Part shown: piece after piece, positions 26,151 through 35,514 of the stretch | Numbering within the stretch: the stretch's first letter is position 1 | Layout of the letters: each line of letters opens with the position of its first letter | Source of the DNA: a virus | Lineage: Duplodnaviria > Caudoviricetes | IMG/VR virus record: IMGVR_UViG_3300033273_000263 | Location: 1-60,149 of that record | DNA: 60,149 bases | Reading direction: 5' to 3' (one strand) | Translations under genes and position numbers: made by a program | The notes under the pieces: generated by a model | Database searches by the model: none | What the model was told of the DNA's origin: nothing | The model's input: only the letters and a program-made list of their open reading frames with translations

Positions 26151-26250
26151 AAGTAAGACCATCAGGGAAATGGTGGAGTTACTATTCCTCCCCACCCTCA
26201 GGGGAGGTATGAGAGACGTGATTTAGTCACCCTATAGGTCTCGGTTTGGG
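26151..26250 (-). ncRNA. PhotoRC-II-like cis-regulatory RNA in the psbA leader
   Basis: Stems GAGAC/GTCTC, CCTCCCC/GGGGAGG, ACCAT/ATGGT directly 5' of psbA; matches my recollection of the cyanophage PhotoRC-II motif. Confidence 0.7.
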
Positions 26251-26298
26251 GTGAGATCTTCGGGATGAGAAACGGTTAAGTTTCGTAACCCGTTGATG

Positions 26299-33156: not shown

Positions 33157-33230
33157 CGGGTCAGGTTGGACTCGAACCAACGACCGATCGCTTAGAAGGC
33201 GATTGCTCTCTTCCACTGAGCTACTGACCC
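33157..33230 (-). tRNA. tRNA-Arg(TCT)
   Basis: GGGTCAGTAGCTCAGTGGAAGAGAGCAATCGCCTTCTAAGCGATCGGTCGTTGGTTCGAGTCCAACCTGACCCG. Confidence 0.95.
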
Positions 33231-34738: not shown

Positions 34739-34764
34739 AAAAAAATGAGCACCTAAGTGCTCAT
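34739..34764 (-). terminator. Rho-independent terminator of the riboswitch operon
   Basis: TGAGCAC-TTAG-GTGCTCA-TTTTTTT. Confidence 0.8.
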
Positions 34765-34928
34765 ATCTTTTTGTTATAAACTGGGTTGAAGGTTAGAGAT
34801 TTTTCTAACCACTCACGGTAGTGAATACAATAGCAGGACCAGTATGGTACCCCTCGGTATTTGAGATTGTAACACGCTGGTTCCCTGCTATCTCTATCCA
34901 TATCATCATAGTGATATCGATAGTCCAT
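34761..34928 (-). CDS. Small DUF4278-like protein (55 aa)
   Basis: MDYRYHYDDMDRDSREPACYNLKYRGVPYWSCY...; L.YRGV.Y motif. Confidence 0.6.
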   Translation of the reverse strand: MDYRYHYDDMDRDSREPACYNLKYRGVPYWSCYCIHYREWLEKSLTFNPVYNKKI

Positions 34929-34931
34929 TTA

Positions 34932-35099
34932 TCACTTGTTGTAAGTGTGACCGCGATAGCAGAAAGTTCCGTGAACTTCATTGACAGTGCCCGACTTACA
35001 CTCAAACTTAACACCACGATATGCAGTGTGAGAGATTTGAGCATCGTGAAGGGAAGATGCCTTTTCGATCTGCTTCTTGATAAGAGATAAGGTGTTCAT
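34932..35099 (-). CDS. DUF4278-family small protein (55 aa)
   Basis: MNTLSLIKKQIEKASSLHDAQISHTAYRGVKFECKSGTVNEVHGTFCYRGHTYNK; two YRG motifs; AGGAG RBS. Confidence 0.8.
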   Translation of the reverse strand: MNTLSLIKKQIEKASSLHDAQISHTAYRGVKFECKSGTVNEVHGTFCYRGHTYNK

Positions 35100-35134
35100 A
35101 ATAGACTCCTGAAATACTAGGGTGAATTAACTCC

Positions 35135-35357
35135 CGTTCCTTCAGTCGTTTGCGTCCCAACGGCATTCTGGGACAGATTCCTTTACGGTCTCTACCAGTT
35201 CTACCAACACTGCGGGAGGTAGATTTCGATTTGTACTGATCTTTAGCATTAATGCTTCAGCATCAGCACAAGTCATTGATGCATATAGAAGTAAATCTAA
35301 CATTGGGATGAACGCTCCGTTCCGCGACTTACTTGCGTCCACCGAAGTGGATGAACG
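35135..35357 (-). ncRNA. Tandem glutamine (glnA-type) riboswitch, second aptamer split by an ORF
   Basis: Aptamer 1 CGTTCA-TCCAC/TTCG/GTGGA-CGCAAGTAAGTCGCGGAACG (35318-35357); aptamer 2 CGTTCA-TCCCAA...TTGGGA-CGCAAACGACTGAAGGAACG; upstream of DUF4278. Confidence 0.75.
35142..35303 (-). CDS. Riboswitch-embedded small protein (53 aa)
   Basis: MLDLLLYASMTCADAEALMLKISTNRNLPPAVLVELVETVKESVPECRWDAND; GGAG RBS between the aptamers. Confidence 0.65.
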   Translation of the reverse strand: MLDLLLYASMTCADAEALMLKISTNRNLPPAVLVELVETVKESVPECRWDAND

Positions 35358-35381
35358 TAAATAGGGGATTGCTCCCCCACT

Positions 35382-35510
35382 TTATTTATGCTTTCGGAGA
35401 CGTTTTTTAGTACCCCTACGCTTCTTAGAATCATATCTTAACTCTTTTTTAAGAGAGGCAAGGAATCTAAGGTGCTTGCGGGTCTCGTCTCTTTCAGACT
35501 TAGGAATCAT
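35382..35510 (-). CDS. Small basic hypothetical protein
   Basis: MIPKSERDETRKHLRFLASLKKEL... Confidence 0.45.
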   Translation of the reverse strand: MIPKSERDETRKHLRFLASLKKELRYDSKKRRGTKKRLRKHK

Positions 35511-35514
35511 AGCA

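Follow-up and report, generated by a model that had tools for sequence, protein, structure and literature searches.

The minus strand of a 60-kb fragment of a T4-like cyanophage (IMG/VR record IMGVR_UViG_3300033273_000263; this whole stretch of 60,149 nucleotides is called the window below) probably carries a cassette that runs from a late promoter to a terminator and whose leader is a nested double glutamine riboswitch. Two glutamine-aptamer cores occupy positions 35357-35134. The outer sensor is, on comparative grounds, a canonical glutamine-I (glnA-type) three-way junction aptamer. The second core, as judged from covariation, is circularly permuted and lies in the loop of the outer P3, with its P1 closed by a GAG loop and with P3 shared end to end by the two cores. 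A complete protein-coding gene is lodged in the P2 of the second core. An earlier note on this DNA had proposed a tandem glutamine riboswitch with a gene inside one aptamer, a cross-pairing between the two units and DUF4278-like target genes. These parts of its reading stood, while its pairing of the P1 strands had to be given up.

Layout of the leader

All leader elements were read on the minus strand, where every string quoted in the earlier note is present. From 5′ to 3′, the outer aptamer opens with CGUUC(1) (35357-35353), the 5′ strand of the outer P1, which pairs with GAACG(2) (35139-35135). It continues with the P2 hairpin UCCAC-UUCG-GUGGA (35351-35338) and with the outer junction J2/3, CGCAAGUA (35337-35330), which fits the RF01739 consensus CGGAAGUA and supplies both the long-range C (35335) and the AGUA half of loop E. 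AGUCG (35329-35325), the 5′ strand of the shared P3, is assigned by covariation, and GGAACG(1) (35323-35318) by string match. The inner P1 hairpin GAACG-GAG-CGUUC (35322-35310), seen in the fold and by covariation, has its GAG loop at 35317-35315 and CGUUC(2) (35314-35310) as its 3′ strand. The 5′ arm of the inner P2, UCCCAAUG (35308-35301), contains the AUG (35303-35301) of the embedded gene, which spans 35303-35142 (53 aa plus the stop UGA at 35144-35142), and the 3′ arm, CGUUGGGA (35162-35155), consists of the codons R-W-D of its open reading frame (ORF); both arms are drawn from fold and covariation. The inner junction J2/3 CGCAAA (35154-35149) carries a long-range C (35152) that covaries with the base after GAACG(1), and is followed by CGACU (35148-35144), the 3′ strand of P3, again by covariation. 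Last comes GAAGGAACG (35143-35135), which includes the GAAG half of loop E and GAACG(2); GAAG, GAACG(2) and the long-range G at 35134 together fill 35143-35134, as placed by the Rfam alignment of relatives and by covariation.

The minimum-free-energy fold of the window leader (-78.9 kcal/mol, z -2.67) was computed from the window alone and contains both the 8-bp UCCCAAUG/CGUUGGGA stem around the ORF, which had been predicted beforehand, and the GAACG-GAG-CGUUC hairpin. The P3 of the outer aptamer in the window is not a simple hairpin and carries a 176-nt insert. As had been claimed, the whole gene lies within the P2 of the second core. Its AUG belongs to the 5′ arm, and the conserved CUGAAGGAACG segment supplies its stop, the UGA being read inside CGAC-UGA-AGGAACG.

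Relatives and covariation of the stems

Pattern scans of IMG/VR yielded more than 120 loci, and 125 distinct elements, window included, were parsed among the matches listed; the counts of units, ORFs and ribosome-binding sites given below rest on these 125. The P2 of either unit may be a short hairpin or a stem around an ORF: an ORF is present in 44 first units and in 113 second units, 81 first and 10 second units are short, and 2 second units are long but have no ATG. By blastn, similar DNA was found in 419 phage records, every one of them a cyanophage, and a 40-nt junction of the element is present in 414 of 50,697 deposited phage genomes or records, where its label, if any, is "hypothetical protein". 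The protein of the embedded ORF, used as query, recovered 15 viral loci at 57-87% identity. Within the window, the other four matches to RAAGGAACG have no CGUUCA partner. The junction pattern (this exact pattern alone) has 7 matches in 185,579 species genomes and none in a cultured cyanobacterium; five of the seven are real, and all five lie on phage-like contigs or in metagenome bins. Four elements (L158, L159, L160 and L154) were seen on contigs in assemblies labelled Nonlabens xiamenensis, Euryarchaeota archaeon TMED129 and Synechococcus sp. (metagenome bin), and these contigs, two of which are 188-194 kb long, are probably cyanophage contigs within cellular assemblies.

For covariation we aligned 73 sequences, namely the window and 72 others. 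These came from the 73 loci that share its class (a short first unit and an ORF-bearing second one), from which L004, nearly identical to L003, was dropped; 500 column shuffles and partners slid by 1-3 columns served as controls. The proposed pairs were 98.5% paired, against 93.4% in shuffles and 31-50% for slid partners, and changes on both sides were seen at 10 pairs, a number reached in 0/500 shuffles. In the P2 of unit 1 all four pairs (4/4) covary, each changed on both sides, and in the P2 of unit 2 four of the five pairs do so across about 245 alignment columns of coding sequence, as expected of the stem drawn in the earlier note. The cross-pairing that it had suggested between AGUCG and CGACU was likewise borne out. 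This helix is 100% paired, with double changes at 2/5 pairs and wobble changes at 2 more, and its 10 distinct arm pairs are each paired at all 5 positions. Position 5 occurs as G-C, A-U or U-A and position 2 as G-C, A-U or G-U, and the compensated variants include AGUCA/UGACU, AAUCG/CGAUU, AAUCU/AGAUU and AGUCU/AGACU, plus wobble intermediates. Where it is the first unit that carries an ORF, the stem reads UCUCAUG/CAUGAGA, UCUUAUG/CAUAAGA or UCCUAUG/CAUAGGA; these three stems use all three stop codons, with the matching change opposite in each.

Nesting of the two cores

The P1 strands were tallied in 210 loci rows, of which 8 lacked 3′ flank, 2 had no 5′ match and 4 had an odd nearest CGUUN. 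Three states account for the rest: outer CGUUC/GAACG with inner GAACG/CGUUC (137/210 rows), outer CGUUC/GAACG with inner CAACG/CGUUG (50/210) and outer CGUUU/AAACG with inner CAACG/CGUUG (9/210). The second and third states pair only as CGUUC(1)-GAACG(2) together with GAACG(1)-CGUUC(2), which is the nested register. When the 15 P1 bases were left free in an unbiased scan, the inner pair was found changed jointly (CAACG...CGUUG) in 7/120 loci and never singly.

The long-range "linchpin" pairs lead to the same register. In the solved structures, according to the accessible parts of PMC6698751, the partners in this pair are the third base of the junction and the nucleotide that follows GAACG. Among 18 aligned sequences, the outer pair (third junction base with the base after GAACG(2)) is CG in 13 and GC in 5, and the inner pair (junction of unit 2 with the base after GAACG(1)) is GC in 15 and CG in 3. 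Taken as nested, the pairs are 36/36 paired and both are compensated, while a side-by-side arrangement gives 20/36 and no compensation. A C after GAACG(1) goes with a CGG junction in unit 2 in 7/7 loci, and a CGG junction in unit 1 goes with a C after GAACG(2) in 11 of 12 loci, the twelfth being an unrelated chance match. The flip from C-G to G-C occurred in two separate groups; in the window the outer pair is formed by C35335 and G35134, and it is flipped in 5/18 sequences.

Rfam models gave a third line of evidence. At gathering thresholds (35 bits for Glutamine, RF01739, and 33 bits for Glutamine-II, RF01704) a scan of the window returned no glutamine family, and a relaxed scan gave sub-threshold matches to unit 1 only, at 28.2 bits for Glutamine-II and 27.4 bits for Glutamine. 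The low RF01739 score of the window goes with its 176-nt P3 insert, and natural ORF-less relatives served as stand-ins for a window deleted of its ORF. In three of these, RF01739 scored 46.8, 43.6 and 41.9 bits and aligned CGUUC(1) to GAACG(2), with P3 as AGU.../...ACU and a 48-nt insert; in a fourth it reached 34.1 bits and covered the second unit only. The expectation that the glnA model would recognise the element thus failed in the window itself and held in three ORF-less relatives, in the nested alignment. These relatives above the cut-off, together with the stem covariation, uphold the claim of a glutamine-riboswitch-type leader with two cores.

Feature by feature, the window agrees with RF01739 in its P1 (35357-35353 with 35139-35135, occurring as CGUUU/AAACG in 9 loci), in a P2 hairpin (35351-35338) that follows CGUUCA and precedes a CG(G/C)AAGUA-type junction (35337-35330), in a P3 (AGUCG/CGACU) flanked by AGUA and GAAG, which form loop E, and in the long-range pair C35335/G35134. 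With RF01704 it agrees less, as neither GGAACG is surrounded by a local hairpin and the partner strand of AGUCG is 176 nt away. Selective binding of L-glutamine by the leader, with a ligand-dependent change in expression, is predicted. Taken together, the P1 covariation, the long-range flips and the alignment of ORF-less relatives to RF01739 indicate that the cores are nested and not side by side.

The embedded gene

The embedded ORF of 53 codons is, by its pattern of conservation, a real gene. It is intact in 113/115 long second units, with its ATG about 10 nt after CGUUCA, and in 106/113 ORFs the stop (UGA or UAA) falls inside CGAC-UGA/UAA-AGGAACG. All 113 second-unit ORFs belong to one family, the window copy matching phrog_504 (E 7e-24). 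Their median ratio of nonsynonymous to synonymous substitution rates (dN/dS), a check named in advance, was 0.37 over 112 distinct coding sequences; third codon positions are the most variable and differences in length are multiples of 3. Of the 44 first-unit ORFs, 39 fall into a second family, whose dN/dS is 0.16 and whose representative (from L006) matches phrog_6471 (E 4e-38). BLASTP between the two families gave no match, and profile comparison related them across a Cys...Cys core (88.9%, E 2.4e-6); the two embedded families are distant paralogs always found at this position. In loci found by protein similarity, CGUUCA stands just 5′ of the ORF AUG and GGAACG at its 3′ end in 15/15.

The predicted structure of the 53-aa protein, which has two cysteines, is a two-helix hairpin with a pLDDT of 82. 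Foldseek retrieved nothing from the PDB at E <= 0.001 for this structure, Pfam gave a single weak match at chance level, the ESM Atlas gave unnamed viral clusters only, and all 36 homologs are unnamed or "hypothetical".

The gene and the RNA use the same nucleotides at both ends of the ORF. The GAG loop and the G before it form GGAG (35318-35315), the ribosome-binding site of the embedded ORF, 11 nt 5′ of its AUG; GAG is found in 105/113 ORF-bearing units and in 0/10 ORF-less ones, in counts that ignore relatedness. At the other end, the P2 arm, the junction and the strands of P3 and loop E are formed by the final six codons together with the stop (W-D-A-N-D-stop). This final stretch is invariant at all three codon positions, which points to constraint both as RNA and as coding sequence.

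Such an architecture also bears on annotation. In Syn33 (L161 1511-1750, Syn33_196) the embedded gene is annotated with 79 aa, which is 26 codons too long and crosses the first core, so that gene starts can be corrected by means of the element. The ORF list of the window gives, in addition, a 66-aa version of the embedded ORF starting at GTG; a GTG-type upstream extension of this kind is out of frame in most relatives. One locus (L015 690-1000) has the ORF-bearing unit alone, with no first core and with its P3 strand changed to CAACU, followed by repeated terminator-like hairpins and another CGUUCAUCCC; it may show the ORF-bearing unit in the absence of its partner.

Downstream genes and a proposed expression platform

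The first gene after the leader (34932-35099, minus strand) encodes a DUF4278-like (IF17-like) protein of 55 aa that matches phrog_545 (E 1.6e-32) and has YRGV and YRGH motifs; its match to PF14105 (E 7e-4, 20.3 bits) lies under the 25.3-bit cut-off of that Pfam family. Among relatives, 18/21 downstream proteins match DUF4278 at E <= 0.01, 3 of them above the cut-off, and at every locus with a long enough flank the next gene encodes a YRG-motif/DUF4278-type protein, as the earlier note had led us to expect. A second small ORF (34761-34928, minus strand) has a KYRGVPY motif and is weakly DUF4278-like (E 0.071). It has no PHROG match, and part of it was matched by blastn in S-RS29, S-MS29 and S-RSM4.

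From the end of the aptamers towards the DUF4278-like gene, conservation and folding point to a helix, here called helix X (35145-35109, minus strand), in which CUGAAG (35145-35140) pairs with UUUCAG (35114-35109). Its CUGAAG strand is made of the last two P3 bases and GAAG. Inside helix X lies a hairpin, P4, formed by GGG (35135-35133) and CCC (35122-35120), 92.8% paired, to which the terminal P1 base and the long-range G contribute. Helix X also takes in the first two bases of AGGAG (35110-35106), the ribosome-binding site of the downstream gene. Across 91 sequences helix X shows 99.3% pairing; it is also present in the minimum-free-energy fold of the window, and its middle pair is GC in 43, AU in 27, GU in 21 and A-C in 0. 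Helix X and P4 are incompatible with the outer aptamer, so the DUF4278 gene is most economically read as being under a glutamine-dependent ON switch, and competition with helix X suggests as much.

We also observed that GUUCAU (35351-35356), in the first core, is complementary to AUGAAC (35094-35099) at the start of the DUF4278 gene, and that the minimum-free-energy fold pairs the two. Codon 2 of this gene is AAC in 64/91 and AAT in 3/91 relatives, and the large genes of the window use AAC 46 and AAT 25 times. Covariation is impossible for this pairing, and relatives with other N-termini do not have it; a second occlusion of the DUF4278 start codon is possible.

A model for the switch

In the mechanism that we propose, the glutamine-bound aptamers would hold CUGAAGGAACGG and so dissolve both the CUGAAG/UUUCAG helix and the GGG/CCC hairpin. 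The AGGAG start thus freed would allow translation of the IF17-like DUF4278 gene, and the leader would act as an ON switch like that of the host gifB. Folding of the inner core would bury the ribosome-binding site and the AUG of the embedded gene, and the two proteins should therefore respond oppositely to glutamine. A ribosome on the embedded gene would have to open the inner P2, the junction and P3 and, on terminating, to open loop E and helix X as well, so that translation of the embedded gene would reset the sensor. From this geometry we infer that ribosome passage and ligand binding are mutually exclusive. The shared P3 could moreover couple the two glutamine sites and make them cooperative.

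In its full form, the model is a two-site cooperative sensor in which binding excludes translation of the embedded gene, the two-cysteine protein is made at low and the IF17-like protein at high glutamine, and ribosomes reset the device. We offer this full form tentatively, as a possibility that is rather less than even. If it is true, the element would be a translation-gated riboswitch and a natural circularly permuted, strand-swapped pair of aptamers.

Weighing the alternatives

Several observations weigh against a nested double riboswitch or against the switching assigned to it. The window falls under the Rfam cut-off for the glutamine models, the support for glutamine binding and switching by the leader RNA is comparative, and in RNA data no run rose above 0.08 of sampled words, all the runs being contigs. 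The counts of covariation ignore relatedness, and several of the informative states may each represent a single clade; the four rows of 210 with an odd nearest CGUUN we take for pattern matches within P2 loops. The conserved P2 of most relatives has just 5 bp, a weak closure for a 140-nt loop unless tertiary contacts assist. Loop E is absent from the inner core, which has CGCAAA in place of CGCAAGUA and CG in place of GAAG and may not bind the ligand. Helix X, for its part, has one covarying pair, and 139/500 shuffles match its count of double changes; it covers only two bases of the ribosome-binding site, and it would be opened by any ribosome that terminates at the embedded stop.

One alternative takes up some of these points, namely that the outer aptamer alone senses glutamine, the inner copy being a degenerate structural clamp and the embedded gene an unlinked passenger. 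The absence of loop E from the inner core speaks for it, as does the fact that Rfam models align the outer aptamer only, and across phages the P2 loops hold varied inserts or none, as a permissive site would. Yet the ligand-contact bases named in the accessible text of PMC6698751 (a C1:G pair, a G>G:C triple and the long-range pair) are all present in both cores of the window, and covariation is seen in the P1, the P2 and the long-range pair of the inner core. In nearly all relatives, structural elements contain the ribosome-binding site as well as the AUG and the stop, and the two embedded families, distant paralogs as they are, always take this position. We regard this explanation as unlikely, at perhaps the level of a chance worth keeping in mind.

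The arrangement put forward in the earlier note, two aptamers side by side with their own P1s (CGUUC(1)-GAACG(1) and CGUUC(2)-GAACG(2)) and a kissing contact in which an AGUCG/CGACU pseudoknot locks both, fared considerably worse. The local Rfam matches to the window do align unit 1 in this way, at the 28.2 and 27.4 bits given above. The alignment of Weinberg et al. 2010 (supplement file 5), in the portion available, lists such units singly, and GAACG(1) is transcribed before CGUUC(2), which makes a transient side-by-side pairing possible. Against it, a side-by-side P1 gives C-C, G-G, U-C or G-A mismatches in 59 loci, its long-range pairs fall short and go uncompensated, as described above, and the best full Rfam alignment of the ORF-less relatives is the nested one. 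Since the covariation of P1 and of the long-range pairs fits the nested fold only, we hold the side-by-side arrangement to be very improbable.

It is scarcely credible that the CGUUCA/GGAACG blocks are recombination or module-shuffling boundaries of small phage genes and no ligand sensor. The cassette does occur in different contexts (nrdB/talC in the window and Syn33, td in S-RSM4), and units exist with and without ORFs, yet recombination sites need no compensatory changes of base pairs, which are seen here, and the match to the solved ligand-binding core is complete. Weakest of all is the proposal that the 140-nt insert is a structured non-coding RNA with a fortuitous ORF, which has its position inside an RNA element in its favour and nothing else, and which the intact frames (113/115), the dN/dS of 0.37, the third-position variation, the indels in multiples of 3, the PHROG match (E 7e-24) and a confident helical model leave with next to no chance.

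Putative promoter, ends and genomic context

The late-type ATAAATA and the terminator ascribed to the cassette are both present. On the minus strand, CATAAATA (35390-35383), a motif resembling T4-type late promoters, includes ATAAATA at 35389-35383. T4-type late promoters have the consensus TATAAATA, about 6 nt before the transcript start. Five nucleotides after CATAAATA stands the hairpin GGGGA-GCAA-UCCCC (35377-35364), which covaries with GGCAGC-GCAA-GUUGCC of Syn33, where TATAAATA and this hairpin are found at the same offsets from the aptamer. By the geometry of late promoters, this hairpin is probably the 5′ end of the transcript, which would begin at its first base. The unit is closed by an intrinsic-terminator-like element (34764-34738) made of an 8-bp hairpin (34764-34745) and a T-run.

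Promoter motifs vary among relatives. Of the 119 with enough flank, ATAAATA occurs within 45 nt upstream in 16, a sigma-70-type TTGAC-N17-TANNNT in 72, with its -10 box inside an inverted repeat (e.g. L001 530-650), and GTA-N8-TAC, which resembles an NtcA box, within 110 nt upstream of the first CGUUCA in 81. The window has ATAAATA only, and neither a sigma-70-type promoter nor GTA-N8-TAC. Depending on the phage, then, early or late promoters seem to drive the cassette.

In the window the cassette is surrounded by nrdA, nrdB and talC, and Syn33 has the same gene order; in both, it lies between nrdB and talC. In S-RSM4 (L162 1201-1775) it is found near the thymidylate synthase gene (td), a different place that suggests that the unit moves as a module. 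A basic ORF of 42 aa (MIPKSERDETRKHL..., 35385-35513, minus strand) lies between nrdB and the cassette, its stop overlapping ATAAATA, and has no PHROG match. Elsewhere in the window we noted, also on the minus strand, a PhotoRC-II RNA at 26174-26265 (76.2 bits, cut-off 39) and tRNA genes at 33157-33230 and 351-422.

Comparison with known systems

The element adds a structurally new form to the glutamine-I riboswitch class, one that is widespread among cyanomyoviruses, and its predicted switching logic is plausible. With its junction in 414 phage genomes, either unannotated or "hypothetical", it would be a widespread phage riboswitch hidden by its own architecture. It indicates that a small-molecule aptamer can tolerate a coding insert of 140-200 nt in a stem-loop, and that an aptamer core can be circularly permuted and share a helix with a second core. 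Insert tolerance, permutation and helix sharing could be useful to RNA engineers, and bear on the building of models such as those of Rfam. In addition, the element would link a host nitrogen signal to small phage proteins that resemble the glutamine synthetase inactivating factor.

Glutamine riboswitches are described, in the accessible sections of PMC6212724, as ON switches for IF17 and IF17-like DUF4278 proteins, and for gifB a short sequence by the 3′ end of the aptamer is proposed there to pair with the ribosome-binding site until glutamine binds. Like the glutamine-I class (RF01739; the Synechocystis gifB/IF17 leader), the outer aptamer of the window has a P1 of CGUUC/GAACG, a P2, CG(G/C)AAGUA, a P3, GAAG and a covarying long-range pair. 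Like the gifB leader as described in those sections, the element lies 5′ of an IF17-like DUF4278 gene and has a competing helix that touches the ribosome-binding site. Unlike glutamine-I, its P3 encloses a second, permuted core and a 162-nt gene. Unlike that same account of the gifB leader, its competing helix uses the loop E strand and not the bases 3′ of P1, and the element is phage-borne with a late-type promoter.

Resemblance to Glutamine-II (the Downstream-peptide motif, RF01704) is seen in the CGC junction with a G after GAACG and in the 28.2 bits of unit 1; the lack of a local P2 hairpin around GGAACG and the score under 33 set the window apart. The Glutamine-II crystal (6QN3), according to the available text of PMC6698751, is a dimer with swapped strands, and glutamine was still bound by a form made of two pieces, so the core, as far as that text goes, tolerates a P1-equivalent helix made from separate strands. 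Unlike in that dimer, strand exchange in the window takes place within one molecule and is evolutionarily fixed.

Tandem glnA RNAs (Weinberg et al. 2010) likewise have two cores per leader. In the parts of this literature that we could consult, the units are treated as adjacent, independent, tandem or triple sensing aptamers, and the available part of the 2010 alignment (supplement file 5) enters units without a P3 one by one; that alignment has 0 matches to five ORF-bearing 5′-arm strings. McCown et al. 2017, from the Breaker laboratory, record in the accessible text two glutamine aptamers only in cyanophage genomes and state that phages rarely use riboswitches (PMC5473149). Other phage papers, in the passages available, mention a glutamine riboswitch without this layout, and in the full-text literature searched, whose coverage excluded Ames and Breaker 2011 and Ren et al. 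2015, no glutamine riboswitch is described as nested or as carrying a gene.

The two predicted ligand sites of the window are joined by shared structure, a likeness to the tandem glycine riboswitch. In the latter, contacts are made between the aptamers. Structured RNAs with ORFs are also known, among them group I and II introns, whose ORFs lie in peripheral loops, tmRNA, and RNAIII with hld. The window resembles them in that a coding sequence occupies a hairpin loop of a folded RNA. Unlike them, the host RNA would here be a metabolite sensor, and that sensor includes among its own nucleotides the start and stop codons of the gene together with its final six codons.

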